A DNA stretch of 64,000 nt from an uncultured Anaerolineales bacterium (GTDB lineage: Bacteria; Chloroflexota; Anaerolineae; CG2-30-64-16), in NCBI GenBank assembly GCA_964474695.1, contig CAYYTK010000017.1, forward strand, positions 25,572-89,571. Reading direction: 5' to 3'. The position numbers and the translations under genes are program-made. The notes under the pieces are model-generated. The model worked only from the letters and a program-made list of their open reading frames with translations. It ran no database searches and had not been told where the DNA came from. Below, one piece after another: positions 10,699 to 29,581 of this stretch (position 1 is its first letter; each line of letters opens with the position of its first letter).

Positions 10699-11031
10699 AT
10701 ACCACGACAGAACTGATGCTGCGGCAATGGCCTCCGGATTGCTGCGCACTCATGCCAGGTTGTTCGGCCGGAAGTACTGCCTCGCCGCGACCGGTGCCAC
10801 AAAACGAACACCTATCTTGGTAATCCAGGCGCTCGAGCAGGCGCACGACAGTGAAATGCGAGCCGGATTGCTGTTCCTGCGCGGCCAGGCACCGTAACCA
10901 AGAGAAACGCAGTCATCTGAGCCCCGCCACTTCTGTATCGATAGCCTGAGTTGCTCTGTTGTCATCAAGGCTGTGCTTCACCTGTGTACGCAGACATAAT
11001 GGCTTGACTTGCGACCGAGGAAGACTCCACT

Positions 11032-14000: not shown

Positions 14001-15132
14001 CGGAGGAGCAGGATCCCTGGACCCTCTTCGCTTGTGGGACTTGACGTCCGAAGATCCTGCCGCTTCCCCCATTATCTTGCAGGGCCACAAGGCTTGGGTT
14101 TGGAATTCCGGGTTCACTCCTGATGGCCGTTGGCTGATCACCAGCAGTCTTGATGGGACAGTGCGCCTCTGGGACATGGCCACGGTTAACACCGATCCCT
14201 CATCGATTGTCCTTCTCGGCAAGCTGCCAGTGCTCGATCATGCCGTCAGTCCTGACGGACGTTGGCTGTTCACCGCAGACGAGCGTGGCGCAGCATTCAT
14301 CTGGCCTCTGCGGGTCGCAGATGTGGTGGAGCTGGCTTGTCTCACCGTTGGACGCAACATGAGCCTAACCGAATGGGAGCAGACCTTCTATGACAGCCCG
14401 TATCGGCTGACCTGCACTGACTTCCCGCTCCATCCCGCTCTTATTCAGCGGGCGCGATTGATTGCCGAGGGGGGCGATATGGCCAGAGCCATGTTGTACC
14501 TCAAGACCGCTTTGGAAATCGACCCCACTCTGGACCTGGAACCTGAGACAGAAGTGAAACGGTACACTGCGGAGGCCCTGCGGGAGGAAGGCGCACTCCT
14601 GGCGCAAACGGAGGGAGATGTGCAAGGGGCAACCGAGAAGTTTCGGCAGGCGCTTGAGCTGTACCCCGAGCTGGCTTTCGATGCGGAGGCAGAGGCTGGA
14701 CACTATGCTGCGCCGCATTTGCTGGATGAGGGGAGGCGTCTGGCAAGAGAGGGAGAAATGCTGGAAGCCTTGGCACTCTACGACAAGGCGCTGCAGCTAG
14801 ATCCTCACCTGATGATATCGGCCTCCTATTGGAATTATGTCTGCTGGTATGGGGGCCTATGGGACCAGGCGCAGGCAGTCATGGACGCCTGTGAGCGTGC
14901 CGTGGCCCTGAATCCGATCGACGGCAATATCCGAGATAGTCGTGGGCTTGTTAGGTCGCTGTTGGGACAGTATTCGGGAGCCATTGAGGACTTCCAGTAC
15001 TTCATCGCATGGCTGACAGAGAGAAACGGGAGCGCCAAAACAATCTCCCAGCGCGAAGCATGGGTTGCCACGTTGGAGGAAGGACGAAATCCTTTCGATG
15101 CGGCAACGCTCGAGGCGCTACGGGGTAAATAG
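11032..15132 (+). CDS. TIR - single TM - Ala/Glu-rich repeat - WD40 array - TPR protein
   Basis: TIR: YWAFISYSSKDAVHARWLHRAIETYGIP, CLIVICSPHAAISPWVNREIETF. Linker: PLAADARQSKDGRNDAKLKLLAGMLGVGFDALKQRD. TM: RRVRRLQVVVAAVLLLALVLSGLAWY. Many xxAFSPDxxWLxTGSxDxTARLWDL blades follow. C-terminus: ACLTVGRNMSLTEWEQTFYDSPYRLTC plus TPR-like helices. Confidence 0.9.
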   Translation: MTDPTTPDYRYWAFISYSSKDAVHARWLHRAIETYGIPAKLVEHGHTTPLGEPAPKQFKPVFRDRDELPASADLGEAIQDALAASRCLIVICSPHAAISPWVNREIETFIEMGRGDRIFAYIVDGEPNSDDERECFPPVLRRPVEPLAADARQSKDGRNDAKLKLLAGMLGVGFDALKQRDTQRRVRRLQVVVAAVLLLALVLSGLAWYANAARLRAEAAEANAVNESYVRATAEAQAVSESHVRATAEANAVTEAHARATAQAVAEDERNRAEDEARIARVRELAAKSQAVIESQPQHSLLLGIEAVQLGAQATQALTGAKNNLYQALSRIGGLGLSGHRNWTWRMAFSLNSQRLVTGGQDGTARVWDMTESPIPRNTRVYQTRNSITSVAVSPDGRWLAAADGDLGLNPYLVGDLGGLDTLFQRRDRQVQGAVDRSRDTAVYLWDLNAPDDRPPIVLGGYDHIIHALAFSPDNRWLATGNYDATVRLWSLEALTTTQPIILHGHEWDVLSIAFSPDGRRLVTGSADNTARVWDLSVPEPDKTSIVLAGHTDQIQAMAMSSDGHWLVTGSEDKTARLWDLTAPDPASTSVVIAQHKATVAAVAISPDNRWVATGGFAEDNTVHLVDLAASQSITDSLVFRGHERSVIGLAFSPDSHWLVSASLDSTLRAWNITSPDPVASVRVIRGQNSANRAIAVSPDGRWLVAGSEDGNVRRWAMSTITGTSVLGNPATIPLALMGHKDRIVDLAVSPDGRWLATGSKEATARLWDLHSFSPESFFSTDALPSIALEGHRDEVYKLAFSADSHWLATASLDDTARLWDLKAANPAVTSLLLEGHEGDINAVAFSPDGHWLVTASDDRTARLWDIRSTNPAEDYVALTGHQLPVLVAEFSSNGRWLATGSMDATARLWDMSLATPEAKPMELTGHTDHVIAMAFSPDNHWLATGSADHTARLWDLTNPESSTPVAVLSGHVGYVTTVAFSPDCRWLVTGGAGSLDPLRLWDLTSEDPAASPIILQGHKAWVWNSGFTPDGRWLITSSLDGTVRLWDMATVNTDPSSIVLLGKLPVLDHAVSPDGRWLFTADERGAAFIWPLRVADVVELACLTVGRNMSLTEWEQTFYDSPYRLTCTDFPLHPALIQRARLIAEGGDMARAMLYLKTALEIDPTLDLEPETEVKRYTAEALREEGALLAQTEGDVQGATEKFRQALELYPELAFDAEAEAGHYAAPHLLDEGRRLAREGEMLEALALYDKALQLDPHLMISASYWNYVCWYGGLWDQAQAVMDACERAVALNPIDGNIRDSRGLVRSLLGQYSGAIEDFQYFIAWLTERNGSAKTISQREAWVATLEEGRNPFDAATLEALRGK
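11689..11814 (+). repeat. 3 x 42-nt in-frame tandem repeat (AEANAVNESYVRAT / AEAQAVSESHVRAT / AEANAVTEAHARAT)
   Basis: Read from the translation and DNA. It lies immediately after the TM helix of the 11032 gene. Confidence 0.8.
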
Positions 15133-15253: not shown

Positions 15254-18200
15254 ATGAGCGAGCAACCTGCCAGGGAGTACCGTTACTGGGCCTTCATCAG
15301 TTACAGCCACAAGGACGAGAAGCAGGCCAAGTGGCTGCACCGCGTCATCGAAAAATACGGTATTCCTATAAAGCAGCTTGAAAGAGGGCATCTCACCCCC
15401 GCGGGCGAGTCTGTGCCTAAGCGATTCTTCCCCGTCTTCCGCGACCGAGCCGAACTGCCGGCTTCCTCGGACTTAAGTGAGACAATCAGAGACGCCCTGG
15501 TGGCCTCGCGTTACCTGATCGTGATCTGCTCTCCGAATGCCGCACGATCCCAGTGGGTGAATCGGGAAGTGGAGACCTTCACCGAGTTGGGCCGCAGCGA
15601 CCGAATCTTCGCCTACATCGTGGATGGTGACACCGACTTGCGCAGATTCGTTAGGCGCTTTGTCCATTTGCTCACCCACATCTTCGCGCACACTACGAGC
15701 GTCGAAGTCGACAGCGGCGACGAGCAGGTGAACTTCCCGGACGCGCTGGAGGAGCAGGAGCCCCTGGCCGCCGATGCCCGCCGGCAAGGCGACGGCAGGA
15801 ATGATGCCAAGCTGAAGTTGCTGGCTGGTATGCTCGGCGTGGGGTTCGATGCGTTGAAGCAGCGTGACAAGCAGCAACAGGCCAAGCGATTCCGACTGAT
15901 AGCTGCCGTCGCGCTGGTACTCGTGATGGTCTTCTCTTTGCTGGCACTGTATGCCGAGTATCAGCGCCGCGAGAGCGAGGTCCAGGCCATGGGCCGCATG
16001 GCCATAGGATTCGCTGATCAGGCCAAGAAAGATGTCGCTGCATATCCCCAACGAAGCCTGCTCACTGCGATCGAGGCAGTCAGCTACTATTCCCAGAGGG
16101 CAGGCGAGACCGGGAGTTCGCCGGCTATGTCCTCCTTGCGTTACGTCCTTAACCGCACAGGGGGGCTAAGCCTGCCAGGCCACCAGGATGCGGTCGGGGT
16201 GACCGCGATCAGCCCGGACAGCCGATGGCTCCTGACCGGCGATGCCGGCGGGTTGGCCTTCATCTGGGATCTAAAAGCTGACGATCTGCGCGCAACGCGC
16301 ATGCAGTTGGCCGATCACCACGGACAGATAACCGCCGCGATGTTCACCCCTGACGGCAAACTGTTAGTCACCACCAGTGCAGATAGGCTCTACGGGTCCG
16401 GCCACGTCCGCATCTGGGTCATTGGGGACGGTGGGGTATCCCCTTCGCCAACCTTTGTATCAGCAAGAGGTGCTGGAAGCCTCGCTGCAGCGGTGAGTCC
16501 CGACAGCAAATGGCTGGTCACTTCAGACGGCGACTATCTCGTGAAGCTCTGGGATTTACGCAACTTTAGCTCCCCGCCGGTCACTTTACTGGCCAGGTCC
16601 AACGTAGTCAAGTCGATAGCATTCAGTCGCGACGGTCACTGGCTTGCAGCCGCCAGCCGCAATGGAAAGGCGTATTTATGGCGGGTCGGGACATTAGGAC
16701 CCTCTGAGACGCCTCTGGTCCTGCGTGGCCACGAGGACTGGGTGAACGCCGTGGCTTTCAGCGCGAACAGCGAATGGCTGTTTACTGGCAGTGGACAGTG
16801 GCAGGTGTGGCCTAACACCGTGACCGGAGCGGCTGCGAAGGATAACTCGCTCGTCGCCTGGAACCTCACAGCAGACAATCCGGCGGGAGCCGGAACGCTG
16901 ATGGGGAAGCTCGATTCGCCGGTGATACAGCTTGTCGTCAGCGATTCAGGCATGGGCCTGATCAGCGTGGGACTGGGCGCTGTCCGGGTCTGGCAACAAT
17001 CGGAACTCAATCACGCTGTGGTCCAGCAGCAGGGGGAGGTGCTGAAGGAATCGGCCGGCGTCGCCGCGTTTAGTCTTCACTCCGATTGGCTGGTCGTCGG
17101 CGACTCCCTCTGGGAGCCTCGTTCAGGATCATATGGTTACGGCAGGTATCTGAAGCTCGATGGCCACGAGGGAGCCATCCTGAATGTCGCCTTCAGCCCC
17201 GACGGGCGGTGGCTCGTCACAGCCGGAGCCGATGGTCTGCCTCGCCTGTGGAATCTCCACCGCATTGGGCTAGAAAATAAAGCGCAGGCTACTCCCCTCA
17301 GTTTTCAATCTCCTTTAGGTTGGTATCACCAGGCGGCCTTCAGCCCTGATGGCCGGTGGTTGGCATTGAACTTCGCAACTGACGGAACTCGCGAATGGGG
17401 CAAGATCAAGTATGGGCCCAAAAGCGCCTTCGCTGTGTACTTGTGGGGCGTAAATGACCTTGTGAACGGCTACAGCCCGAACTACCTCATAGGCCACAAC
17501 GCAGCTGTTGAATATCTCGCATTCAGCGGAAACGGACGATGGTTGACCACTTTGGACCGGAACAGAGAGATACTTTTGTGGGATATGCTGCAGGTACAAT
17601 CTGGTCCCTTCAAAGTACCCGGGATGGATCCTATAGTGTCGCTGGCGCTGAGTAGCGACGGTCGGTGGTTAGCCGCGCTAGGCGATCGAACAAAAACAGT
17701 GAGTCTCTGGAATCTGGACAGAGCGCCGGAAGCGATTCCTTCGCCCGTCGTACTTCGGGGCCATACGGAAAACGTCAACTCCATCGCCTTCAGCCCCGAC
17801 AGCCGGTGGCTCCTCACCGGAAGCGACGACAACACGGCGCGTCTTTGGGATCTGGCATCCGCAACCACGGTAGGGAATCCAATCGTGTTAGCCGGTCATA
17901 ACGGTGATGTAAGGCAGGTGTTAGTTACCCCCGATGGGAAGTGGGCGGTAACGAGCAGCTATGACCACACGGTCCGACGTTGGGATTTGCAGTCTATCAA
18001 CCCAGGCAGTGAATCTCACCCATACTCCGGATATCAGCAGTGGGATGTGCTATTGGGGGCAAGCTCAGATGGACACTGGCTGGTCACGGTGGACGGCAGC
18101 AATCCGGTCCTCTGGAACCTGTGGCGCAAGCAGGCGGACGCGATTGTCCTGACCGGACATACGGCTGCCGTGAATGCCATAGACATCAGCCCGGACAGCC

Positions 18201-19093
18201 GGTGGCTGATCTCGGGAGATCAGGTGGGAGAGGCGTTCATTTGGGATCTCCATAGTCCTCAGAGTAGCCCGGCCTTCTTTTCGAATTCCGGTCATGCGAT
18301 AGAGGTTGTGCGGGTTAGCGGTGATGGACGCTACGTGCTTGTGGTAGACACATCGGGTCTTGCTTCACTGATACTTCTGCGAACGGACGACTTGGTCACA
18401 CTTGCGTGTCAGGTCGTGGGACGAAACTTCACCGCCTCGGAGTGGAATGACTTCTTCCCTTTGCGTGCCTATCGTCCCACCTGCCCGGACTTGCCGCTCC
18501 CCCTGGGTCTGGTCGAGCCGATACTGGATGAGGCCAAACAACTTGCCGAGGCGGGTGACGTAGCGAAAGCCACCGCCAAGTTCCAGGCGGCAAAGACGAA
18601 AATCCCGACCTTGAATCTGGATCCCTCCGCCGAAGCAGAACGGCTTGCTATTGGAGCAAAGATAGAAGGCCTGGTCAAACAAGACCAGACCCAGGAAGCG
18701 CTCGACTTGTTTCTTGCGGAACGGGCTAGGGAGGGGGCGCCTGTGCTCTCGATGGACGCCATGGCGTCACTCTGCGTGTTCGGGAGCTATGCATCCCCGG
18801 TGGAAACAAAGGAAATCTGCAGCGAAGTCATCCGGAGGGATGACGTCCCGACGCATGGCGTCCGCCCCATGGGATTCGCGCTTTTCGGAAGGGGTATCAC
18901 ACGCATCGCCGCACACGACTATTCAGGCGCGGTTGAGGATTTCACCTCCATTACAAAAGGGCTGAATGGATTGGAGGGTTACGACGAGTTCCGGTCCGAG
19001 CTTGGCGTGGACCTGGATGCATGGATTGCCGATCTGAATGCCGGGCGGATTCCGCCGGATGCGCCTTCTCGCCGATCCTACAGCCGGCGCTGA
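15254..19093 (+). CDS. TIR - single TM - WD40/beta-propeller protein (paralog of the preceding gene)
   Basis: TIR: YWAFISYSHKDEKQAKWLHRVIEKYGIP, YLIVICSPNAARSQWVNREVETF. It has the same linker, PLAADARRQGDGRNDAKLKLLAGMLGVGFDALKQRD. TM: KRFRLIAAVALVLVMVFSLLALY. The WD40-like blades are degenerate. C-terminus: ACQVVGRNFTASEWNDFFPLRAYRPTC. Confidence 0.9.
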   Translation: MSEQPAREYRYWAFISYSHKDEKQAKWLHRVIEKYGIPIKQLERGHLTPAGESVPKRFFPVFRDRAELPASSDLSETIRDALVASRYLIVICSPNAARSQWVNREVETFTELGRSDRIFAYIVDGDTDLRRFVRRFVHLLTHIFAHTTSVEVDSGDEQVNFPDALEEQEPLAADARRQGDGRNDAKLKLLAGMLGVGFDALKQRDKQQQAKRFRLIAAVALVLVMVFSLLALYAEYQRRESEVQAMGRMAIGFADQAKKDVAAYPQRSLLTAIEAVSYYSQRAGETGSSPAMSSLRYVLNRTGGLSLPGHQDAVGVTAISPDSRWLLTGDAGGLAFIWDLKADDLRATRMQLADHHGQITAAMFTPDGKLLVTTSADRLYGSGHVRIWVIGDGGVSPSPTFVSARGAGSLAAAVSPDSKWLVTSDGDYLVKLWDLRNFSSPPVTLLARSNVVKSIAFSRDGHWLAAASRNGKAYLWRVGTLGPSETPLVLRGHEDWVNAVAFSANSEWLFTGSGQWQVWPNTVTGAAAKDNSLVAWNLTADNPAGAGTLMGKLDSPVIQLVVSDSGMGLISVGLGAVRVWQQSELNHAVVQQQGEVLKESAGVAAFSLHSDWLVVGDSLWEPRSGSYGYGRYLKLDGHEGAILNVAFSPDGRWLVTAGADGLPRLWNLHRIGLENKAQATPLSFQSPLGWYHQAAFSPDGRWLALNFATDGTREWGKIKYGPKSAFAVYLWGVNDLVNGYSPNYLIGHNAAVEYLAFSGNGRWLTTLDRNREILLWDMLQVQSGPFKVPGMDPIVSLALSSDGRWLAALGDRTKTVSLWNLDRAPEAIPSPVVLRGHTENVNSIAFSPDSRWLLTGSDDNTARLWDLASATTVGNPIVLAGHNGDVRQVLVTPDGKWAVTSSYDHTVRRWDLQSINPGSESHPYSGYQQWDVLLGASSDGHWLVTVDGSNPVLWNLWRKQADAIVLTGHTAAVNAIDISPDSRWLISGDQVGEAFIWDLHSPQSSPAFFSNSGHAIEVVRVSGDGRYVLVVDTSGLASLILLRTDDLVTLACQVVGRNFTASEWNDFFPLRAYRPTCPDLPLPLGLVEPILDEAKQLAEAGDVAKATAKFQAAKTKIPTLNLDPSAEAERLAIGAKIEGLVKQDQTQEALDLFLAERAREGAPVLSMDAMASLCVFGSYASPVETKEICSEVIRRDDVPTHGVRPMGFALFGRGITRIAAHDYSGAVEDFTSITKGLNGLEGYDEFRSELGVDLDAWIADLNAGRIPPDAPSRRSYSRR

Positions 19094-19243: not shown

Positions 19244-21613
19244 ATGGTTGAGAGAAAGCGTTCTTTCATCAGCATGGCCAGGCTATCCCACCTCTGGCGC
19301 CGCCATGGCTGGCTGATTATCGGCCTGCTGTGGATCGTCGCACTGGCGTTGGGCTGCGTTGGCTTTGCGCTGAACGCGGCGGTCGAGGGGCGGTCGCCGC
19401 GCTTCTTCGACGTGGCCTACCGCACCCTCCAGCTTATCCCGATGAACTCCGGCGACGTGGATAGCGCGGCCTGGCCACTCGATGTCGCGCGCTTCCTGAT
19501 CCCCTTCCTCGCGGCCTGGACTGCGGTCCGCGCGCTGCTGGGGCTGTTCAGCGACCGCTGGCAGCAGTTCCTCCTGCGCACCTGGCGCGGCCACGTGATC
19601 ATCTGCGGGCTTAGCCGCAAGGGCTGGCTGCTGGCACAGGGCTTTGTGGAGCGGGGTGACCGCGTGGTCATGATCGAGGCCGATGAATCCCACGACCTGA
19701 TCGGCCCCTGCCGCGAGCGCGGGATAGTTGTGCTTCTGGGCGACGCTACGGATTCGGACCTGCTGCGGCGGGCCGGCGTGCTCCGCGCTGGGCACCTGGT
19801 GGCAGTCACCGATGACGATGGCGTCAACGCGGAGATCGCGGTGCGCTCCCAAGGGGTGCTGCGCAACGCTGCCCAGGGGAGCAGGAGCCAACGAGGATCC
19901 TTGACCTGCACCGTACACCTGGTGGACCCGCAGCTTTACGAGCTGGCGCGCACGCGCGAGCTGGCGCTGGAAGAGGACGTGCCGCTGCGCCTGGAGCTGT
20001 TCAACGTGTTCGAGCGCGGGGCCCGCCTGCTGTGGGATGACTTCGGGCCGGTGCGCGGGGGAAACGGCGCACCGCAAAGGGGAGTCGAGACAACTGACGT
20101 GTGCTCGGCGCATGTGTTGGTGGTTGGGCTGGGCCGCCTGGGCGAGTGCCTGGCCGTTCACGCGGCGCGCGACTGGCACACGCGGCTGCACGATTCACCC
20201 TGCGCCGCGGCCGGCCGGCTGCGCATCACCGTGGTGGACCTGGAGGCAGACTGGAAGTGCCGGGCGCTGAGCCTGCGCTACCCGCAACTGGCCGGCGTGT
20301 GCGACCTGATCCCGTTGGCTATGGACGTGCGCGGGCCGGGCTTCTATGAGGAGACCTTCCTGACCGGGATAACCGATCACCCGCCGGCCAGCGCGGTCTT
20401 CGTTTGTTTCGACGACGACTCATTGGGGCTGCGCACCGGGCTGGCGGTCCATCAGCGCCTGCTGCACACGGCCGCGGGGCCGACGCCGGTGATCGTGCGC
20501 ATGGCGGAGGCCGGTGGGCTGGCGCGGCTGTTGGAGCGGGCCGTCGAGGGCCATGGGGCGACGACCTTTGCCAACCTGCACGCCTTCCCCCTGCTCGACC
20601 GCACCTGCACGCCCGAAGCAATCCTGGGCGGCACGCACGAGGTGTTGGCGCGCGGCCTGCACGGGGTCTACCGCCGGCAACAGGAGGCGCTCGGCCACAC
20701 CGCCGCCACCAATCCGTCGCTGATCGGTTGGGAGGAGCTGCCCGAGGCGCTGCGCGAATCGAATCGCGCCGAAGCTGACGGCATCTTTCGGCACCTGGCC
20801 TCCTTGGGATACACGCTCATTCCGTTGGCCGATTGGAACGCTGCCTTCTTTCGCTTCCCCGAGGCAGAGCTCGAGCGCCTGGCGCAGGTGGAACACGAAC
20901 GCTGGGTCAGCGACTTGCGGCGCCGCGGCTTCAGGCCCACCGATGGGCCGAAGGACGTGGCTGCCAGACTTCATCCGGCGCTGCGGCCCTGGGCTGATCT
21001 GCCTGACGCGGAGCGCATCAAGACGCGCGACAATGTACGCGAATTGCCGGCGACATTGGCCCGCGCCGGCTTCCAGGTCGTCCGGCTGGCTTCGACCGGC
21101 CAAAGCATAACCCCCAGCCCCTCGGCACAAGGAGAAGAGCCAGTGAGCATGCAATCCAATCGGCGCGAGGTCCTGGGCCGCGCCATCCACGAACGCTATC
21201 GGCAGAACCAGCGGGGCATCAAATCGCCGGACGACCCAGCCATGCAACCCTGGGAGACATTGGCCGAGCATCTGCGCGAGTCCAACCGGCAGCAGGGCGA
21301 CGACATCGAAGCCACCCTGCAGCACATCAGCTGCGGGGTGCGGGCTGCCGTAGGCCCGGCGCCGGTCCCTTTTGTCTTCACGAATGAAGAAATCGAGGCC
21401 ATGGCCGCCTTAGCGCATGAGCACTGGATGGCGGAGCGCCGCCGGGCGGGCTGGAGATCCGGGCCGCAGCGCGACGCGGAACGCAAGATCACCCCGTACT
21501 TGATACCCTACGCTGAGTTGACAGAGGATGTCAAGGAGTGGGATCGCCAGGCTGTGCGAGCGATACCGGAAGTGTTGGCGGCCGCCGGGTTGGAAGTGCA
21601 TCGCCTGCCGTAG
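19244..21613 (+). CDS. channel-like 2-TM protein with RCK/TrkA-N NAD-binding domains and two C-terminal RyR-type units
   Basis: AAGGAGG lies 8 nt upstream of the ATG. TM1 is WLIIGLLWIVALALGCVGFAL. A pore-loop-like segment, FFDVAYRTLQLIPMNSGDV, precedes TM2 LDVARFLIPFLAAWTAVRALLGLF. RCK: GHVIICGLSRKGWLLA..VVMIE..GDATDSDLLRRAG..AVTDDDGVNAEIA. A second Rossmann-like segment is HVLVVGLGRLGECLA. RyR-like: LAQVEHERWVSDLRRRGFRP..LHPALRPWADLPDAERIKTRDNVRELPATLARAGFQVV and AALAHEHWMAERRRAGWRSGPQRDAERKITPYLIPYAELTEDVKEWDRQAVRAIPEVLAAAGLEV. Confidence 0.8.
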   Translation: MVERKRSFISMARLSHLWRRHGWLIIGLLWIVALALGCVGFALNAAVEGRSPRFFDVAYRTLQLIPMNSGDVDSAAWPLDVARFLIPFLAAWTAVRALLGLFSDRWQQFLLRTWRGHVIICGLSRKGWLLAQGFVERGDRVVMIEADESHDLIGPCRERGIVVLLGDATDSDLLRRAGVLRAGHLVAVTDDDGVNAEIAVRSQGVLRNAAQGSRSQRGSLTCTVHLVDPQLYELARTRELALEEDVPLRLELFNVFERGARLLWDDFGPVRGGNGAPQRGVETTDVCSAHVLVVGLGRLGECLAVHAARDWHTRLHDSPCAAAGRLRITVVDLEADWKCRALSLRYPQLAGVCDLIPLAMDVRGPGFYEETFLTGITDHPPASAVFVCFDDDSLGLRTGLAVHQRLLHTAAGPTPVIVRMAEAGGLARLLERAVEGHGATTFANLHAFPLLDRTCTPEAILGGTHEVLARGLHGVYRRQQEALGHTAATNPSLIGWEELPEALRESNRAEADGIFRHLASLGYTLIPLADWNAAFFRFPEAELERLAQVEHERWVSDLRRRGFRPTDGPKDVAARLHPALRPWADLPDAERIKTRDNVRELPATLARAGFQVVRLASTGQSITPSPSAQGEEPVSMQSNRREVLGRAIHERYRQNQRGIKSPDDPAMQPWETLAEHLRESNRQQGDDIEATLQHISCGVRAAVGPAPVPFVFTNEEIEAMAALAHEHWMAERRRAGWRSGPQRDAERKITPYLIPYAELTEDVKEWDRQAVRAIPEVLAAAGLEVHRLP

Positions 21614-21673
21614 GGGTCACTTCGTCCGATCCATAGGGGGTACAAAACGCAGTCTTTTGGACGGAGGTGTAAC

Positions 21674-24241
21674 ATGACCGACGGAATCTCGCAAAGTGAT
21701 ATTGATTGGGCCTGCCGACAGATCGCCTGCTACAGTGAGCTCTATCCGAGATATCAGACCTATGCAACGGTCCTGAAGAACGTGCTCGATCAGGCAGTGC
21801 GCGGCCTGGCCCCACTCGCCACCGTAGAGACCCGACCGAAAAACATAGCCAGCTTCGCCGAAAAGATCATGCGCAAGAAAGACAAATACCGGGACCCGGT
21901 CAACCAGTTGACCGACCTGTGCGGCGCTCGCGTCATTACCCACACCTACGCCGAAGTCGGATTGATCTGTGAGTTCATCGAGCAGCACTTCATCGTGGAT
22001 GCTGCAAACAGCGTCAAGATCCACCAGCGGCTGAAGCCCAACGAGTTCGGGTATCGCTCGGTGCATTACGTCGTGCAGATCCCCCGTGGTGTTTTCACAA
22101 AAGAGCGTGAGGCTGTCGAGATCCCGGAGGATGTATACCCAGGACCGCAGGGGGCTCCCCCCATGAAAGCCGAGATCCAGGTGCGGACCCTGCTGGAGCA
22201 CGCTTGGGCGGTGTTCAGCCACGAAAAAGCATACAAGGGCGCATTCGACATGCCAGCAGTGTGGGACCGCGAACTGAACGGCATTGCGGCCTTGCTGGAG
22301 GAGGCTGACCAGGCCTTCTCGCGCATCCAGGCTGGCTTGCGCGCCTACGCGGCCAGCTATGGCGCTTCCATGAAACCTGAGCAGGTTCGTAACGAAATCG
22401 CCCTGCTCCGCGTCGTGTGGGGATGCAGCAACTCAGATCTCGATGTGGCTTACCGCATTGCCAAGCTGGCTATGACCATCGAAGATTGGGACCAGGCGAT
22501 TGAAATGCTTCGACCGCACAAGGAGGCCCTCAGCCAACCAATGCTGCGAGACCTGGGCATTTCGCTCACAAAGAAGTATGCGCAGGAGCCTCAGAGTATG
22601 GACTTCATAGAAGGCCGCGAACTCCTGGCCCGCGCGTGCGAGCTCAATCCCGCCGATGCCGATGCCTGGGCTTCCCGCGCCGGCGCCCACCGGGATGACC
22701 CGGCCACCCGACGCTTCTATTACCAACGCGCCTTTGTAGCTGACCCAACCGATCCATACGCTGTTAGCCGGCTTCTGGTCAGTGAGGTCTCGCGAGCGTG
22801 GGATCCTGCGGCGACCCAATCATCAGCCGCTGCGCCCAACCAGCCCATCGAGAGACAATACCTGCCTGCTGCACAGCTAATGGAACCCGCGATCAGAGCA
22901 TCCATCCAGCGCTGCCGAAACCAGATCGCGGTAGGGACGAACATGCCATGGGCTTACTACAGCCTTGGCATGTTCCATCTGATGCTGCACGAGCCCTACG
23001 AAAGCCTGATTGACTACGCCAAAGCGACCCAACTCAGCACGGCCCCCTGGATGATCAAGACCTCGCTGGATACCCTCCATGAGTTGGCACCTGTCCGCAG
23101 CTTTCTGCCCGGATATGATTGGCTAGTGCGATGGCTCATCCTCGGATGGGCCACACTGTTCCCCGACAAAGCCCCCGTTGACCAAATGGCTGCGCTGCGC
23201 AGGTCGAGCGACGAGCCCATCTCAGCGCCAGTGCTTGTCATTGCAGGCGGCACGGATCCCAGTGTCGAAGAGAAGATGCAGACCTACCGAAAGTTCCTGC
23301 TGGACGGGCTTAAGGACTATGCGGGCACCATCATCTCGGGCGGCACGCTTGCAGGGATCGCGCGACTCGTCGGCGATGTACAAGAGGCCGCAGGCGATAG
23401 AGTCAGAACCACCGGCTACATACCTGCAGAAGCAGAGGATCTTCCACTCGACTCCCGGTATCGCGAGCTCCGAACGACAGAAGGACGCGATTTCAGTGCG
23501 CTCAAGGTCGCTCAGTACTGGATCGACCTTGTGCTATCGGGCGTCCGCCCCCAGCAAGTCAAGGTCATCGGGATCAACGGCGGGCGTATCTCCGCAGTAG
23601 AATATCGCTTGGCCCTGGCCCTAGGCGCACAGGTCATCGTCGTTGAGGGCAGTGGCCGGGCCGTCGATGACTTGCTCAAGGATCGCAACTGGGCCGACGA
23701 ACCCAATCTACTCCCAATTCCGGCCGACGCAATAGTCCTCGGGGGTCTTGTCGGTGCCAAGCGGCCGATCATTGATAAGAATCAGCGCGAAGACCTGGGA
23801 CGCGCCATCCACGCGGCATACTGCCAGACACAGGCGATTGAGCGGGCCAGGGCAGACCCGTCCACGGTTGGCTGGGATAGCCTGGCGGAGAACCTCCGGG
23901 AGTCGAATCGCCAGCAGGCCGATCACATTGAAAAGAAGGTGGCGCAGATCGGCTGCTCCATTTGCGCTGCCGGAGAGACAGAAAACCCCGTCATGGAGTT
24001 CAGCAAAGAAGAGGTCGAGGCCATGGCCGAGATGGAGCACGGCCGGTGGATGGCCGAGCGTCTGCAAGCTGGATGGCGGCGCGGCACGCCCAAGGATGTG
24101 GCGAGGAAAACTAGCCCGTACCTTATGCCGTGGTGGGAACTTGACGAGGACGTGAAGGAGTGGGATCGTGTCACCGTGCGCCAGATTCCGCAGTTACTGG
24201 CGGAAGTCGGACTGCAGGTGCGGCGAGATCGTCCTACGTAG
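21674..24241 (+). CDS. RelA/SpoT-family nucleotide pyrophosphokinase - TPR - SLOG (LSDAT/TRPM-type) - RyR-unit fusion protein
   Basis: GGAGGTG lies upstream of the ATG. Synthetase motifs: RPKNIASFAEKIMRK, DLCGARVITH, EFGYRSVHYVVQ, AEIQVRTLLEHAWAVFSHE. Helical TPR-like middle region. SLOG: VLVIAGGTDPS, IISGGTLAGIARLVGD, VIGINGGRIS, QVIVVEGSGRAVDDL. C-terminal RyR unit: AEMEHGRWMAERLQAGWRRGTPKDVARKTSPYLMPWWELDEDVKEWDRVTVRQIPQLLAEVGLQV. Confidence 0.85.
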   Translation: MTDGISQSDIDWACRQIACYSELYPRYQTYATVLKNVLDQAVRGLAPLATVETRPKNIASFAEKIMRKKDKYRDPVNQLTDLCGARVITHTYAEVGLICEFIEQHFIVDAANSVKIHQRLKPNEFGYRSVHYVVQIPRGVFTKEREAVEIPEDVYPGPQGAPPMKAEIQVRTLLEHAWAVFSHEKAYKGAFDMPAVWDRELNGIAALLEEADQAFSRIQAGLRAYAASYGASMKPEQVRNEIALLRVVWGCSNSDLDVAYRIAKLAMTIEDWDQAIEMLRPHKEALSQPMLRDLGISLTKKYAQEPQSMDFIEGRELLARACELNPADADAWASRAGAHRDDPATRRFYYQRAFVADPTDPYAVSRLLVSEVSRAWDPAATQSSAAAPNQPIERQYLPAAQLMEPAIRASIQRCRNQIAVGTNMPWAYYSLGMFHLMLHEPYESLIDYAKATQLSTAPWMIKTSLDTLHELAPVRSFLPGYDWLVRWLILGWATLFPDKAPVDQMAALRRSSDEPISAPVLVIAGGTDPSVEEKMQTYRKFLLDGLKDYAGTIISGGTLAGIARLVGDVQEAAGDRVRTTGYIPAEAEDLPLDSRYRELRTTEGRDFSALKVAQYWIDLVLSGVRPQQVKVIGINGGRISAVEYRLALALGAQVIVVEGSGRAVDDLLKDRNWADEPNLLPIPADAIVLGGLVGAKRPIIDKNQREDLGRAIHAAYCQTQAIERARADPSTVGWDSLAENLRESNRQQADHIEKKVAQIGCSICAAGETENPVMEFSKEEVEAMAEMEHGRWMAERLQAGWRRGTPKDVARKTSPYLMPWWELDEDVKEWDRVTVRQIPQLLAEVGLQVRRDRPT

Positions 24242-25501: not shown

Positions 25502-28500
25502 GTGACGATGGATGGACAAATGACGAGTATATTCCTCTCCTATGCACGCGATGATGACGAGCCATTCGTCCGGCGGCTGTACGACGACCTGACCGAGGCC
25601 GGATTCACCGTCTGGTTCGACCGCGTCTCCATGCCGAGCCGTGCGCTCACCTTCCTGCAGGAAATCCGCGACGCCATCGCCGCTTCCAACCGCCTCCTGC
25701 TCGTGGTGGGACCGAAAGCCGTCGCCTCGGACTACGTGGCGGCTGAGTGGCGCTGCGCGCTGGAGCTGTGCCTCGCGGTCACGCCGGTGCTACGGCTGGG
25801 CGACTACAACCTGGTGCCCCCTGAGCTGTCGGTGCATCACTGCCCCGATGCCCGGCCAGAGCGCCCCTACGCCGACGCGCTAGCTGAGCTGCTGCGCGTC
25901 CTGGCCGAGCCGGTGCCGCCCCTGGCGGCGCTACACGGCGTGCCATCGTTGCCCGCGCACTTTCTGCCCCGGCCGACCGACCTGGCTTTCCTGGACGAGG
26001 CCGTGCTGGCGGACGTGCGCGGGCCGACGGTCATCACCTCGGCCAGGCAGACCACGGCGCTGCAAGGGATGGGCGGCGTGGGCAAGTCGGTATTGGCCGC
26101 GGCCTTTGCGCGGAGTTGCGGCGCGCGCCGCGCGTTCGGCGACGGCATCGTCTGGCTGACCCTGGGCCAGCAGCCCGATCTGCTGCGGGTGGCGTTGGCG
26201 CTGGCTGCGGCGCTGGGGGACGACTTGGCCGAGTACACCGACCTGCAACGCGCCCGGAACCGCTTGCCGAAGCTGCTGGACGACAAGAAGTGCCTGCTGG
26301 TGCTCGACGACGCCTGGGACGTGGCCCACGCCGAGCTCTTCGCCAACAGCCTTGGCCCGCGCTGCCGGCTGCTGGTGACCACGCGCGACGGCGGGCTGGC
26401 GGCCGCGCTGGGCGCACAGGAGCGTCGGCTGGACGTGCTGGAGCTGGATGCGGCCTTGAGCCTATTGGCAGACTGGTCGGGCAAGGCCAGCGAAACCCTG
26501 CCGTCCGAGGCGTGCGAGGTGGCCGCCGAGTGCGGCTACCTGCCCTTTGCGCTGGCGTTGTGCGGCGCAATGGCCCGCGACGGCGCGCCTTGGGCCGACC
26601 TGCTGGACGCGCTACGTGAGGCCGATCTGGCGTTCTTGCAGGCGCAGTTCCCCAACTACCCCTACCCCGACGTGCTGCGGGCACTGAAGGTCAGTGTGGA
26701 CGCTCTGGCCGCCAGCGACCCGAACTGGGCGAGGCACTACCAGGAGCTGGCCGTTTTCCCACCTGACGAGGCAGTGCCCGAAGCTGCGATCGTCCAGTTG
26801 TGGGTGCACACCAACGGCCTCAACGAACGAACCGCGCGCCAACTGCTGACGACCCTGGGCCGCAAGTCGCTGGTGCGGCTGGAGGGCCAGGCGCCGCACC
26901 GCCGCGTGGCCCTGCACGATCTGCAACACGACTACCTGCGCGCCGCGCTGCGCGACCTGACCGGCCTGCACGCTGAGCTGCTCGCCGCGTACCGGGAGAA
27001 GTGTCCCGAAGGCTGGCACGCCGGTCCGAACGACGGCTACTTCTTCGAACGGCTGACGTGGCACCTGGCCCTCGCCGGTCGGGCTGCTGAGCTGCGCGAT
27101 CTCCTGCTCGACTACCGCTGGATTCGAGCGAAGCTGGGGGCCTCCGGGCCGGCCGCGCTGATCGCGGACTACGATGTCGCGTTCGACCTTGCCGCGCCCC
27201 GTGGGGCCGGCGATGAGACGGTGCGGCCGGTGCAGGGCGCGATCCGGCTGTCGGCGCATGTGCTGGCGCGGGATGTGGAGCAGCTGCCATCGCAGATCAC
27301 CGGCCGGCTGCTGGCGCGGCGGGAGGAGGAGATAGAAAAACTGCTGCAGCAAGTGCGCGACGAGACAAAGACGCCGTGGCTGCGACCCCTGGCGCCGACC
27401 CTGGACGCCCCTGGCGGCGCGCTGGTGCGCACGCTGACCGGCCATACCAGTGGCGTCCTGGCTGTGGCGCTCACGCCAGACGGACGGCAGGCAATCTCTG
27501 CATCGGGGGACAAGACGCTTAAGGTATGGGACTTGACAAGCGGGAAGGAGTTGCGCACCCTGGCCGGTCATACCAATGACGTCACGGGCGTAGCGCTTAC
27601 GCCAGACGGCCGACTGGCCATCTCCACATCTGAGGACACGCTCAAAGTGTGGGACGTGGCAAGCAGCCAGGAATTACGCACTATAACATGCCATGACGGC
27701 TGGATCAAAGCCGTGGCATTGACACCGGACGGTAGGTTGGCGGTCTCCGCCTCGTGGGACAGCACGCTCAAAGTGTGGGACGTGGCAAGCGGCCAGGAGT
27801 TACGCACCCTAGCCGGCCATGTCGGGACAGTCGAGGCCGTGGCGTTGACACCAGACGGCCGGTTGGCGGTCTCCGCATCGGAAGATGAAACGCTTGAGAT
27901 TTGGGACGTGGCAAGCGGCCAGAGGTTGCGCACCCTGGCAGGCCACACCGGGTGGGTCTGGGGCGTGGCGATCACAGCGGATGGGCGGCTGGCCGTCTCG
28001 GCATCATGGGATAACACGCTTAAGGTGTGGGACATAGCGACCGGGAAGGAACTGCACACTCTGGTCGGTCATTCAAAGGGTGTCAAGGCCGTGACGCTCT
28101 CTCCCGATGGCCGGTTGGCCATCTCGGGCTCAGACGATAGGACGCTCAAGGTGTGGGACGTGGCCAGCGGGCAGGAGCTATGCACGCTCGCAGGCCATGC
28201 TGGTCCGATCACCGCCGTGGCAGTGACGCCGGACGGTAGGTTGGCCGTCTCTGCATCGTGGGACCAGACGCTCAGGGTGTGGGACGTGGCCAGCGGGCAG
28301 GGGCTGCGTGCCCTGACCGACCATGCCGGGGCGGTCACCACAGTGGCGCTCACATTAGATGAACGACTAGCCGTCTCGGCTTCAAGCGATATGACGCTGA
28401 AGGTCTGGGATGTGGCCAGTGGGTCAGAGTTGAAGACCCTAGAAGGCCATGCCGGCCAAATCACGGCCGTGGCCCTCACGCCAGACGGCCGGCTGGCCGT

Positions 28501-29581
28501 CTCCGCATCGAACGACCATACGCTCAAGGTGTGGGACGTGGCCAGCGGGCAAGAGTTACGCACGCTGGAGGGCCATACCGAAGGTGTTCGAGCCGTGGCC
28601 CTCACGCCAGACGGCCGGCTGGCCGTCTCCGCATCGAACGACCATACGCTCAAGGTGTGGGACGTGGCCAGCGGGCAAGAGTTACGCACGCTGGAAGGCC
28701 ACAGTGGTGCAATTACCGCCATCGCACTCACAGCAGATGGGCAGCTGGCTGTCTCCGCATCGAGTGACCATACACTCAAGGTGTGGCAGATTTCGGCGCC
28801 GCATGATCTGAACCGCGTTCGCCGATGGCAGGCCCAAGAACCTTATGCGGACGTGGCCACAGGGATGGAAATGCACACCCTGGACGGCCATAGTTGGTGG
28901 GTCGAAGCCGTGGCACTCACAGCAGACGGCCGCCTAGTCGTCTCCGCATCGTTCGATGAAACGCTTAAGGTATGGGATTTGGCGAGCGGCCAGGAGCTAC
29001 GCACCCTGGCCAGCTATGCCTATGGGGCAACCTCCGTTGCACTCACACCGGATGGCAGGTCGATCATCTCCGCATCGAACGACCATACGCTTAAGGTGTG
29101 GGACGTAGCGAGTGGAACGGCGCTACGGACTCTGGCAGGTCGTGCCAATGGAGTCCGAGCGGTGGCGATCACACCGGACGGCCGACTGGCCATCTCCGCA
29201 TTGCAAGACAAAACGCTCAAGGTGTGGGACGTGGCCAGCGGGAATATGCGCGCATCGTATATAAGCGAAGGGCTGGCCACGTGTTGCCCGTCGAGTGGAG
29301 CCGACGGACTCTTGCTGATGGGCGACGCAAGCGGGCGCGTACACTTTCTGCGCTTGGAGAACGTGGCCTTCGGGCCGACAATCATCACTGCGTGGCAAGC
29401 ACCTGCGGCTCTCGATGTGGCCTTCGGCTGCACCCACTGCCGCACCTGGTCCGAGGTCCCCGCGTCGACGCTGGGCACGGAACTGCCCTGCCCCCGCTGC
29501 GGCAAGCCGGTCAAGCTCAACCCATTCGTGATCGAGGCGGACTGGCGGCCGGTGGCGGCCGCGTGGCGAGGTGAACGTTAA
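25502..29581 (+). CDS. TIR - NB-ARC (STAND) - 14 x WD40 - C-terminal Zn-ribbon protein
   Basis: TIR: IFLSYARDDDEPFVRRLYDDLTEAGFTVWFDR, LLLVVGPKAVASDYVAAEWRCALE. P-loop LQGMGGVGKSVLAAAFA and Walker B CLLVLDDAWD. Fourteen blades of the type GHxxxVxAVALTPDGRLAVSASxDxTLKVWDVASGQELRTL. Tail: CTHCRTW...CPRCG. An alternative ATG start lies at 25508. Confidence 0.9.
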   Translation: MTMDGQMTSIFLSYARDDDEPFVRRLYDDLTEAGFTVWFDRVSMPSRALTFLQEIRDAIAASNRLLLVVGPKAVASDYVAAEWRCALELCLAVTPVLRLGDYNLVPPELSVHHCPDARPERPYADALAELLRVLAEPVPPLAALHGVPSLPAHFLPRPTDLAFLDEAVLADVRGPTVITSARQTTALQGMGGVGKSVLAAAFARSCGARRAFGDGIVWLTLGQQPDLLRVALALAAALGDDLAEYTDLQRARNRLPKLLDDKKCLLVLDDAWDVAHAELFANSLGPRCRLLVTTRDGGLAAALGAQERRLDVLELDAALSLLADWSGKASETLPSEACEVAAECGYLPFALALCGAMARDGAPWADLLDALREADLAFLQAQFPNYPYPDVLRALKVSVDALAASDPNWARHYQELAVFPPDEAVPEAAIVQLWVHTNGLNERTARQLLTTLGRKSLVRLEGQAPHRRVALHDLQHDYLRAALRDLTGLHAELLAAYREKCPEGWHAGPNDGYFFERLTWHLALAGRAAELRDLLLDYRWIRAKLGASGPAALIADYDVAFDLAAPRGAGDETVRPVQGAIRLSAHVLARDVEQLPSQITGRLLARREEEIEKLLQQVRDETKTPWLRPLAPTLDAPGGALVRTLTGHTSGVLAVALTPDGRQAISASGDKTLKVWDLTSGKELRTLAGHTNDVTGVALTPDGRLAISTSEDTLKVWDVASSQELRTITCHDGWIKAVALTPDGRLAVSASWDSTLKVWDVASGQELRTLAGHVGTVEAVALTPDGRLAVSASEDETLEIWDVASGQRLRTLAGHTGWVWGVAITADGRLAVSASWDNTLKVWDIATGKELHTLVGHSKGVKAVTLSPDGRLAISGSDDRTLKVWDVASGQELCTLAGHAGPITAVAVTPDGRLAVSASWDQTLRVWDVASGQGLRALTDHAGAVTTVALTLDERLAVSASSDMTLKVWDVASGSELKTLEGHAGQITAVALTPDGRLAVSASNDHTLKVWDVASGQELRTLEGHTEGVRAVALTPDGRLAVSASNDHTLKVWDVASGQELRTLEGHSGAITAIALTADGQLAVSASSDHTLKVWQISAPHDLNRVRRWQAQEPYADVATGMEMHTLDGHSWWVEAVALTADGRLVVSASFDETLKVWDLASGQELRTLASYAYGATSVALTPDGRSIISASNDHTLKVWDVASGTALRTLAGRANGVRAVAITPDGRLAISALQDKTLKVWDVASGNMRASYISEGLATCCPSSGADGLLLMGDASGRVHFLRLENVAFGPTIITAWQAPAALDVAFGCTHCRTWSEVPASTLGTELPCPRCGKPVKLNPFVIEADWRPVAAAWRGER
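27428..29250 (+). repeat. 126-nt-period coding tandem array (14 WD40 blades) with very high inter-blade identity
   Basis: The periodicity is visible in both DNA and protein. It includes a perfect 103-nt duplication (28467-28569 = 28593-28695). Confidence 0.9.

Follow-up and report, generated by a model that had tools for sequence, protein, structure and literature searches.

Introduction

TRPM2 joins a SLOG region (MHR1-2), a cation channel, and a NUDT9H Nudix domain and is gated by ADP-ribose (ADPR), and the site and the reality of cyclic ADP-ribose (cADPR) action on ryanodine receptors are still disputed. SLOG-SLATT and related nucleotide-centric conflict systems were reportedly described by Burroughs and colleagues in 2015. 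The isomers 2'cADPR and 3'cADPR are the signals of Thoeris TIR proteins, and phage proteins of the RyR family PF02026, named RyDEP, cleave these isomers or bind them at nanomolar affinity (PMC13232231, a preprint of May 2026). In the same report, the ligand pocket of RyDEP consists of H75, W78, H100, and D117, is stated to be conserved in the family and to be the same as the ATP/ADP site of RyR3 Repeat12, and belongs to a protein that homodimerizes; among eight other RyDEP homologs tested, none was catalytic and six bound signals, with the key residues conserved (PMC13232231). Here we analyzed a stretch of 64,000 nucleotides (hereafter the window) from an uncultured Anaerolineales bacterium (assembly GCA_964474695.1, contig CAYYTK010000017.1, positions 25,572 to 89,571), which carries two neighboring genes, gene 1 and gene 2, whose products both end in RyR modules of the PF02026 family.

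Gene 1 encodes a predicted two-transmembrane (2TM) protein with two Rossmann domains and two RyR modules, and gene 2 encodes a RelA/SpoT-type pyrophosphokinase domain followed by a TPR-like solenoid, a SLOG domain, and one RyR module. Our preferred reading, which we hold as a serious possibility a little short of probable, is that both proteins are effectors sensing TIR-derived ADPR-type nucleotides via RyR (and, in gene 2, SLOG), the one being a pore and the other a toxSAS-like pyrophosphokinase. The most likely mechanism of the locus is a new variant of TIR nucleotide signaling.

The locus resembles Thoeris in its adjacent and co-directional TIR genes, in its defense-island setting, and in its effector candidates with nucleotide-sensor domains; gene 2 carries a SLOG domain as does type I ThsA (SIR2-SLOG), and gene 1 is channel-like, as is the type X ion-channel effector. 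It differs from Thoeris in that the proposed sensor is RyR (PF02026) and the candidate effectors are of RelA/SpoT and RCK-channel type, a combination lying outside the described and the 29 predicted types as far as these are set out in the accessible parts of Yirmiya et al. The TIR partners here are large TIR-WD40, TIR-TPR, and TIR-STAND proteins instead of the short ThsB, and no more than about a third to a half of the loci have a TIR gene within 5 kb. With RyDEP, the modules share the PF02026 family, the H-x2-W ... D ligand spacing, and a link to TIR/cADPR signaling; RyDEP proteins, however, are small phage sponges or glycosidases that shut signaling off, whereas the modules described here are host-encoded, fused to effector-type domains, not found on viral contigs, and mostly have Ser at the position equivalent to H100.

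The likeness to the toxSAS proteins FaRel, FaRel2, and CapRel is confined to the catalytic domain, a RelA/SpoT domain of the small alarmone synthetase (SAS) type with full motifs, and to the adjacent small hydrolase that most genomes carry and that could reverse the product. Gene 2, however, encodes 855 aa with TPR, SLOG, and RyR parts, and its partner is a Nudix protein, missing in the window, and not a small alarmone hydrolase (SAH) or a proteinaceous antitoxin. Gene 1 has, in prediction, the TM1/short helix/loop/TM2 arrangement and the two tandem Rossmann/RCK domains that liken it to the RCK-gated 2TM K+ channels GsuK and MthK and, further, to TrkA gating rings, but it has [ML][NE]SG in place of TVGYG and adds C-terminal RyR modules. 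TRPM2 and the animal RyR share a vocabulary with the locus type at the system level (LSDAT-type SLOG, Nudix, a channel-like protein, and RyR repeats, beside makers of ADPR-type nucleotides); here these domains lie on separate proteins, the Nudix is MutT-like and not NUDT9/ADPRase-like, the predicted pore of gene 1 is of neither TRP nor RyR type, and the SLOG profile finds no TRPM chain. SLOG-SLATT systems occur in the same neighborhoods (cluster 11) and likewise couple a nucleotide sensor to a 2TM pore effector, but the 2TM part of gene 1 has no SLATT Pfam match and is coupled to RCK and RyR.

Results

Both open reading frames (ORFs) are present as the original prediction had placed them: they run in the same direction with a gap of 60 nt, each start codon has a strong Shine-Dalgarno sequence ahead of it (GAGAAGGAGG-n6-ATG for gene 1 and GGACGGAGGTG-n4-ATG for gene 2), and every peptide string cited there was recovered in the translations. 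Identical proteins occur in the same gene order in public assemblies, where they are unnamed in every source. A promoter and terminator scan of 14.9-25.6 kb gave counts equal to the shuffle expectation and was uninformative; it detected no terminator on the plus strand between the two genes.

The element common to gene 1 and gene 2 is the RyR module, a domain that, by analogy with its characterized homologs, is of a nucleotide-binding type. The module comprises ~150 aa and consists of two RyR half-repeats (Repeat12-type, PF02026). In Pfam searches, RyR matched gene 1 in three stretches (E 2.4e-27; 95.4 bits against a cut-off of 27.4) and gene 2 at residues 779-850 (E 4.9e-14; 52.8 bits against the cut-off of 27.4). 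Gene 1 had been predicted to contain two RyR-type units; the RyR assignment stands, but each of these units is a ~150-aa module made of two half-repeats. The RyR module of gene 2 matched, at the sequence level, the Bt/human RyR chimera (4.5e-18), RyR2, and RyR3 Repeat12 in the PDB, and structures of human RyR3 Repeat12 with ATP, ADP, or AMP-PCP were among the Foldseek matches of the models of both genes.

Two kinds of module can be distinguished. Type A is native to the gene 1 family, from which all 20 nearest relatives of gene 1 module 1 come. Type B is found in gene 2, in the proteins of a further family (c4, described below), in stand-alone RyR proteins, and as module 2 of gene 1; within the gene 1 family it is restricted to a small sub-lineage that includes the window, most relatives having ~600 aa and a single module. 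Module 2 of gene 1 and the module of gene 2 are 52% identical over ~150 aa, as expected from the claim that the two proteins share a C-terminal module, and this identity makes the gene 2 of the same locus the closest to gene 1 module 2 among 74 modules of the gene 2 family. A c4 module is 59% identical to gene 1 module 2. In 20 other pairs of gene 1 and gene 2, modules of the same locus were not systematically the most similar (ranks 4 to 72 of 73), and this scatter argues against a purely homotypic adaptor role. Locus-specific co-variation of the RyR modules, in the style of effector-associated domains, was rejected as the main explanation since no general trend was seen.

We mapped the RyDEP pocket onto the modules by spacing, using a B. 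thetaiotaomicron RyR protein aligned to gene 2 and not the RyDEP sequence itself. The B. thetaiotaomicron protein has H, W(+3), H(+25), and D(+42), which is the exact RyDEP spacing, and H789, W792, and D831 of gene 2 match the spacing of H75, W78, and D117. Among the modules of the gene 2 family, H is kept in 74/74, W in 68/74, and D in 71/74; in the gene 1 family, the corresponding positions hold H in 80/83, an aromatic residue in 80/83, and D or N in 77/83. Module 2 of gene 1 retains the H, W, and D positions.

Neighborhoods were compared in two sets of 80 loci each, one from genomes with gene 2 as the seed and the other from metagenomes with gene 1 as the seed, and in both sets ORFs were called and then clustered; TIR domains were searched with an iterative local hidden Markov model (HMM) seeded with the TIR domains of the window. 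TIR ORFs were found in 24/80 loci of each set. Near gene 2, their density fell ~13-fold, from 0.065 per kb in the first 2.5 kb to 0.005 per kb at 7.5-10 kb, and next to gene 1 it was 0.10 per kb. Most TIR ORFs (56/63) lie on the strand of the seed gene. Direct adjacency to an RyR protein or a Nudix gene was seen for 40/66, and 36 of these 40 are co-directional, with gaps mostly <250 nt and some overlaps. In 11/45 loci, a TIR gene lies directly downstream of the gene-1 relative. An operon of Anaerolineae metagenome-assembled genomes (MAGs), annotated by independent precomputed Pfam assignments, runs c4-RyR, a 205-aa protein, a gene-1 relative, TIR-DUF1349, and TIR-WD40, and is compact, with stop codons that overlap start codons. 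The C-termini of the TIR partners vary (TPR, WD40, or TM), and a nucleotide-sensor domain is absent from these proteins. A putative catalytic Glu is retained in 68/70 of them, at a position that, judged by its motif, would be that of the catalytic glutamate in TIR NADases.

In the window, 150 nt separate gene 1 from the end of a TIR-WD40 gene that lies upstream on the same strand, an adjacency of the kind seen in Thoeris, and the product of this TIR-WD40 gene retains the putative catalytic Glu in the motif WVNREVE. The family of this TIR-WD40 protein adjoins relatives of gene 1 or gene 2 in 24 loci. A 235-aa TIR gene and a second TIR-WD40 paralog also lie upstream of gene 1 (Table 1). The closest relative locus, L164, has kept both TIR-WD40 genes together with gene 1 and gene 2 at 67-70% identity, with different genes downstream.

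Gene 1 was modeled with AlphaFold2 (AF2) on 41 homologs with a mean pLDDT (predicted local distance difference test) of 86.7. The model has TM1 at residues 2-47, a short helix at 54-62, a loop, and TM2 at 77-111, and after TM2 come two Rossmann domains and then two RyR modules. This order of TM1, pore helix, loop, TM2, and RCK domain is the topology of 2TM K+ channels. In Foldseek, the top match of the model was GsuK (E 4.6e-10), a 2TM K+ channel that has two RCK domains in tandem, with an alignment that covers almost the full GsuK chain; further matches were TrkA rings, full-length MthK, Slo1, and human RyR3 Repeat12. The GsuK entries in the Foldseek list include ones containing ADP and NAD. 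The TrkA-N/RCK fold followed by a second Rossmann-like segment, which the original prediction had proposed, is recovered by Pfam TrkA_N (residues 118-201, E 1.2e-14, above the curated cut-off), by the AF2 model, and by an invariant dinucleotide-binding motif GxGxxG...D in the second Rossmann domain (G295, G297, G300, D332). NCBIfam gave partial matches only, to the RCK part of TrkA, Kch, and KefC.

The loop between the TM helices is the best-conserved N-terminal feature of the gene 1 family, with the consensus DLxYLTLQLIxMNSGxV (FFDVAYRTLQLIPMNSGDV in the window); D56, Y59, Q63, L64, S69, G70, W77, L79, R83, and P87 vary little or not at all. The K+ selectivity filter T[VI]GYG is missing: the window has PMNSG, and the family has x[ML][NE]SG (MNSG or LESG). 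None of 41 family members matched Pfam Ion_trans_2 at E <= 1, a profile of the TM region found no PDB chain at E <= 10, and the 2TM part has no SLATT Pfam match. The first two of these results gave no sequence evidence for a K+ channel pore, so that the putative pore is assigned from the predicted structure only. Of the K+-channel-like loop noticed earlier, the topology and the structural likeness to GsuK and MthK have stood, but not a sequence match to K+ pores. From this predicted topology and Foldseek likeness, gene 1 is a candidate nucleotide-gated pore effector.

The AF2 model of gene 2 (pLDDT 85, predicted TM-score, pTM, 0.80) begins with an SAS fold, continues through a helical TPR-like solenoid and a Rossmannoid SLOG domain, and ends in one RyR module. 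The full RelA/SpoT motif set noted before is confirmed by Pfam RelA_SpoT (PF04607; residues 53-189, E 5e-16, 59.4 bits against a cut-off of 27) and by the invariance, in 27 homologs, of R54, K56, S60, K64, D81, G84, R86, G126, Y127, H131, E167, Q169, and T172; the synthetase motifs RxKxxxSxxxK, DxxGxR, GYRSxH, and ExQxRT are all complete. PDB sequence matches of this domain ranged from 7e-10 to 2e-7, with RelP/YwaC best (6.8e-10) and RelQ/YjbM also found, and NCBIfam gave a partial YjbM match. Foldseek matched the model to SAS1/RelQ (SAS1 TMt ~0.7), RelP, and RyR3 Repeat12. The TPR-like helices of the original prediction are supported by the helical repeats of the model and by Foldseek matches of the solenoid to the TPR glycosyltransferases SPY/OGT and to consensus TPR, with Pfam TPR matches staying below threshold.

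The SLOG domain of gene 2 matched Pfam LSDAT_prok (PF18171) at residues 519-671 (E 3.1e-10, 40.1 bits against a cut-off of 25.4), a precomputed annotation of most gene 2 homologs, and has the conserved motifs GGxD, GTxISGG, GINGGxIxxxE, and EGSGR. Of the earlier assignment to the TRPM/LSDAT clade of SLOG domains, the LSDAT part is upheld by this match, but not the TRPM part: searching the PDB with a SLOG-region profile gave no TRPM chain, and TRPM was absent from the Foldseek top 50 of the whole model. RyR and SAS matches dominated the search of the PDB with the whole-protein profile. A direct sequence link between this SLOG domain and TRPM did not emerge from either profile. The sole SLOG-related PDB match of the SLOG profile was 1rcu, which we take to be such a protein, with a marginal E of 0.15. 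Taken together, gene 2 is a candidate sensor-coupled toxSAS-like effector. Variants of gene 2 with an extra KaiC/RecA-like ATPase domain (PF06745; P0074, P0081, and P0097, ~1055 aa) and truncated variants that lack the C-terminal RyR module (P0077, L034, L052, L067, and L073, ~685 aa) were also observed.

In 26/80 species-genome loci, gene 2 has a gene-1 relative no more than 10 kb away, and a gene-2 relative lies near gene 1 in 11/80 metagenome loci (4/13 among those with good flanks). The neighborhood of the two genes is thus far above chance yet not obligate, being found in about a quarter to a third of loci. The expectation that the pair is syntenic in other genomes therefore holds insofar as the association is not random, but the pair is not the conserved unit, since other partners are more common. 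Such facultative combinations of partners are a modularity typical of conflict systems.

The commonest partner of gene 2 is a NUDIX protein of ~140 aa (Pfam 9.6e-24), present in 22/37 well-flanked loci and encoded directly upstream of gene 2 in 27/63. It is MutT/NudG/NudI-like, that is, of the nucleoside triphosphate (NTP) pyrophosphohydrolase type, and not ADP-ribose-pyrophosphatase-like; this type fits the removal of a pyrophosphorylated nucleotide. An example is L002 9552-9980, and 43 other gene-2 loci have it. Searching the window by tblastn with 44 Nudix queries gave no match, by which a Nudix partner within the window was rejected, and the gene is also missing from the closest relatives of the window (L164-L166). 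No Nudix or SAH-like neutralizing gene of the kind that adjoins toxSAS was found anywhere in the window.

Other RyR-module proteins and TIR genes are more frequent partners of gene 1 than gene 2 is. Its recurrent neighbors are c4, stand-alone RyR proteins, a ~200-aa protein, and TIR-domain proteins. The c4 proteins have ~870-885 aa, with an N-terminal region of ~450 aa, a P-loop (GSPGSGKS), and RyR repeats; the N-terminal region has no Pfam match and no PDB sequence match. Operons with c4 include L171 2714-11349, L173 2732-13042, and L172 6001-10533. The ~200-aa protein upstream of gene-1 relatives had SLOG Pfam matches below threshold only; kinship with the SLOG of gene 2 was rejected at an hhalign probability of 0.2%. 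Around both families, DUF4062-NACHT STAND proteins, a ClpB-like double AAA+ protein, and SLOG-SLATT proteins recur. The DUF4062-NACHT proteins were not counted as TIR proteins because hhalign of DUF4062, their N-terminus, against TIR gave a probability of only 9%. Proteins that combine a SLOG-like part with a SLATT_1/SLATT_3 2TM effector lie near gene 2 at L018 7718-9463, at L049 9673-11286, and in 5 other loci, a recurrence that connects loci of this type with nucleotide-sensing pore systems predicted earlier.

Some gene-1 orthologs and relatives depart from the usual form. In the related metagenome contigs L165 (4317-6605) and L166 (4112-6298), ORF calling yields two frames for the ortholog (402 + 358 aa and 368 + 344 aa, respectively), which could reflect a frameshift, a pseudogene, or a genuine split between the RCK and RyR parts. 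In L167 (Ga0116237_10000013, 491 kb), a two-module relative with 64% identity at 10001-12346 lies among transport and metabolic genes, and neither a TIR gene nor a second RyR protein was found within 10 kb of it; this solitary relative suggests that some members of the family may act alone or with distant partners.

Both families are large and patchily distributed across many bacterial and archaeal phyla. Gene 2 had 832 scored homologs, and the best 120 were nearly all full-length (~98-100% query coverage, with one truncated exception) at 43-67% identity. In a collection of one genome each for 185,579 species, relatives of gene 2 were found in 325 places; the best 80 of these are all in MAGs, of Chloroflexota, Actinomycetota, Gemmatimonadota, Planctomycetota, Bacteroidales, Pseudomonadota, Bathyarchaeia, Methanomicrobia, Halobacteriota, and others. 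Gene 2 spreads patchily over more than 15 phyla, archaea included, at 40-50% identity. Gene 1 had at least 569 homologs. Viral contigs in IMG/VR contained no relative of gene 1 and two partial matches to gene 2, both to the synthetase domain only, and on this search a viral origin of the two genes was rejected.

The statement that no known defense system has this composition agrees with PADLOC, which reported no system: gene 1 had no match, and gene 2 matched PDC-S33 only (1.2e-13), confined to the synthetase domain. The gene families are uncharacterized, widespread, and associated with defense islands and, apart from the partial PDC-S33 match, have no entry in defense catalogs. Neither RyR nor LSDAT contexts are mentioned in Kaur et al. 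(2020) or Iyer et al. (2022). On Thoeris, RyR, and RelA-SpoT taken together, the literature search yielded the RyDEP preprint only, and Burroughs et al. (2015) may already catalog the architecture.

Discussion

We propose that gene 1 and gene 2 are parallel effectors of a modular anti-phage conflict system and not a generator-effector pair. TIR-domain proteins alongside, here the upstream TIR-WD40 proteins, would make an ADP-ribose-derived signal, while their WD40, TPR, or STAND parts would detect infection. The RyR modules would sense the signal, for which a cADPR isomer or ADPR itself is a candidate; SLOG would assist in gene 2, as possibly would the two dinucleotide-type Rossmann domains in gene 1. 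Gene 1, probably tetrameric like RCK-gated 2TM channels, would then open a pore that is not K+-selective, and the membrane potential would collapse. In gene 2, the RelA/SpoT domain would be released and would pyrophosphorylate a purine-nucleotide or tRNA acceptor in the fashion of toxSAS, thereby depleting ATP or blocking translation. The MutT-like Nudix next to gene 2 in most genomes, though not in the window, may clear basal product and so act as an antitoxin or set a threshold. Growth arrest or abortive infection would result. We favor two effectors because the synthetase protein itself bears two sensor-type domains, because gene 1 is usually found without a synthetase yet beside a TIR gene, and because binding of cADPR isomers, the products of TIR proteins, has now been shown for RyR domains (PMC13232231).

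Several observations weigh against this two-effector proposal. A TIR gene lies within 5 kb in 12/37 well-flanked gene-2 loci and 7/12 gene-1 loci, whereas true Thoeris effectors adjoin their TIR near-obligately. A TIR domain joined to WD40 or STAND parts is commonly interpreted as an NAD+-depleting effector, and residence in defense islands alone could account for part of the TIR proximity. Several loci consist of Nudix and gene 2 only, and some gene-1 relatives stand alone in housekeeping surroundings. The pore of gene 1 is without support at the sequence level, both the Ion_trans_2 and the TM-profile searches being negative. The identity of the ligand is inferred by analogy with distant phage and animal homologs. 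At the +25 position, equivalent to H100, most type-B modules have Ser, with His in c4 and part of the type A modules. Finally, RyR, PF02026, RelA, PF04607, and TrkA are absent from the accessible parts of the text and supplements of Yirmiya et al. on 29 putative Thoeris effector types.

The original prediction had let the signal flow from the synthetase to the SLOG sensor and on to the channel. Gene 2 would then generate an alarmone-like pyrophosphorylated nucleotide, the RyR and SLOG domains would be its receptors, gene 1 would be the effector, and the Nudix proteins of other loci would reset the system. The synthetase motif set, complete and invariant, speaks for such a flow, as do the tight coupling of a Nudix of NTP-pyrophosphohydrolase type (MutT/NudG) to gene 2 and the type-B module common to gene 2, gene 1, c4, and stand-alone RyR proteins; and as RyR3 Repeat12 binds ATP/ADP, a polyphosphorylated adenine nucleotide is a plausible ligand. 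We nevertheless consider it unlikely, though worth keeping in view, and less parsimonious than two effectors: 69/80 gene-1 loci have no gene-2 relative within 10 kb and still keep the RyR module and TIR/RyR flanks, the supposed generator bears two sensor-type domains as sensor-effector fusions such as ThsA do, and the known stand-alone RelA/SpoT domains of defense (CapRel, toxSAS) are effectors. The RyR modules and Rossmann domains might instead respond to ordinary ATP, ADP, NAD+, or ADPR, so that gene 1 and gene 2 would be sensors of metabolic collapse, fired by a disturbance of the NAD+ or ATP pools, for example through NADases (TIR, SIR2) encoded in cis or in trans or through the phage itself. 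This would account for the loci without a nearby TIR gene and agrees with the ATP, ADP, or AMP-PCP in the RyR3 Repeat12 structures, with the PDB entries that contain ADP or NAD for GsuK, which is the best structural match of gene 1, and with the invariant GxGxxG...D of the second Rossmann domain. It seems doubtful to us, since co-directional TIR genes within operons, whose products have sensor-like C-termini, suggest a dedicated signal, and phage homologs bind cADPR isomers at nanomolar affinity (PMC13232231).

That RyR modules occur in several different proteins of one operon, that RyDEP forms homodimers (PMC13232231), and that the extra module of gene 1 in the window is closest, among gene-2 modules, to that of its own neighbor would suit a ligand-free homotypic adaptor, comparable to Death-fold or effector-associated domains, that assembles RyR proteins into one complex. 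But modules of the same locus were not systematically closest in the 20 other pairs, conservation falls on pocket residues rather than surfaces, and solitary gene-1 relatives keep the module, all of which make a pure adaptor improbable. Still less credit can be given to a role in ordinary physiology, with an RCK-regulated K+ channel and a stress alarmone synthetase residing in a variable island without any part in defense. TrkA_N/RCK and RelA/SpoT are indeed classic housekeeping domains, a 6-phosphofructokinase (PFK) gene follows gene 2, and one gene-1 relative lies among metabolic genes; however, MNSG or LESG replaces the TVGYG filter, the spread is sporadic (the 325 matches among species representatives), TIR, STAND, SLATT, Nudix, and ClpB-like genes dominate the neighborhoods, and the window is a defense island with a recombinase. 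It is equally hard to believe that the modules are catalytic glycosidases which, like RyDEP, degrade TIR-made cADPR and serve as negative regulators or terminators. At the positions equivalent to the RyDEP catalytic dyad, the modules do keep His and Asp, but the eight other homologs that lacked activity (PMC13232231) speak against this, as does fusion to a synthetase and a pore-like domain, which is the architecture of an effector.

Beyond the two genes, it is possible, though somewhat less so than the two-effector proposal itself, that a prokaryotic TIR-to-RyR axis exists, in which cADPR-type signals of TIR proteins are received by Repeat12 modules on a pore and on a pyrophosphokinase; this would be a new Thoeris-like class and an antecedent of cADPR-modulated RyR channels and of the logic of TRPM2. 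If this is true, RyR-repeat modules would serve host immunity as receptors of nucleotides that TIR proteins make, beyond their part in phage counter-measures, and hence a new sensor domain, and two effector chemistries would be new, an RCK-type pore and a RelA/SpoT pyrophosphokinase restrained by a Nudix. An evolutionary rationale for the Repeat12 domains of RyR and for the SLOG/Nudix modules of TRPM2 would follow, and a small soluble RyR module on a channel-like protein beside a TIR cyclase would make the question of cADPR and RyR tractable. Should the ligand be another, the families would still be large, cross-phylum, uncharacterized, and outside the defense catalogs, and so worthwhile targets.

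Genomic context of the locus

Positions of gene 1 and gene 2, their domains, and the nearest genes are listed in Table 1.

Table 1. Features of gene 1, gene 2, and adjacent genes, in coordinates of the window.
Feature	Position	Strand	Length or match
Gene 1	19244..21613	+	789 aa
Gene 1 residues 1-111: predicted TM1, short re-entrant-like helix, conserved loop, TM2	19244..19576	+	
Gene 1 residues 118-270: RCK/TrkA_N Rossmann domain (GLSRKG ... E145)	19595..20053	+	
Gene 1 residues 289-460: second Rossmann domain	20108..20623	+	
Gene 1 residues 462-615: RyR module 1, type A	20627..21088	+	
Gene 1 residues 634-789: RyR module 2, type B	21143..21610	+	
Gene 2	21674..24241	+	855 aa
Gene 2 residues 1-230: small-alarmone-synthetase-like pyrophosphokinase domain	21674..22363	+	
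Gene 2 residues 235-505: all-helical TPR-like solenoid	22376..23188	+	
Gene 2 residues 515-695: SLOG (LSDAT_prok) Rossmannoid	23216..23758	+	
Gene 2 residues 700-855: RyR module, type B	23771..24238	+	
TIR-WD40, candidate signal producer or sensor	15254..19093	+	Pfam TIR_2, ThsB_TIR
Second TIR-WD40 paralog	11032..15132	+	
6-phosphofructokinase gene, between gene 2 and the TIR-NB-ARC-WD40 gene	24350-25462		
TIR-NB-ARC-WD40 STAND protein, beyond the PFK gene	25502..29581	+	Pfam TIR_2 1.3e-19

The setting in a TIR/STAND island, which had been noted from the outset, is borne out by the genes around the pair: a TIR gene, two TIR-WD40 genes, a TIR-NB-ARC-WD40 gene, a caspase-TIR fusion, a DUF1156/DUF499 pair, an Eco57I-type restriction-modification gene, and a serine recombinase. 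The cluster of the TIR-NB-ARC-WD40 protein (cluster 10) was found again in 6 other loci. A HerA-like ATPase (31665-33470, with an unannotated partner upstream at 30871-31668), an Eco57I-type fused restriction-modification methylase of 1455 aa (38065-42432), and a large serine recombinase on the opposite strand (33826-36207, -) together mark the region as a mobile defense island. The caspase (Peptidase_C14)-TIR fusion at 51853-53157 is flanked by giant TIR-...-WD40 proteins at 47551-51828 and 53162-58816.

In a related contig, a PFK fragment follows gene 2 (L165 9317-9427); it was not found in L164. PFK may mark the insertion site of the block. The DUF1156 (methylase-like) and DUF499 (ATPase) genes, at 2754-5681 and 7078-9915 with a 215-aa ORF between them, look like a separate restriction- or BREX-like defense module.

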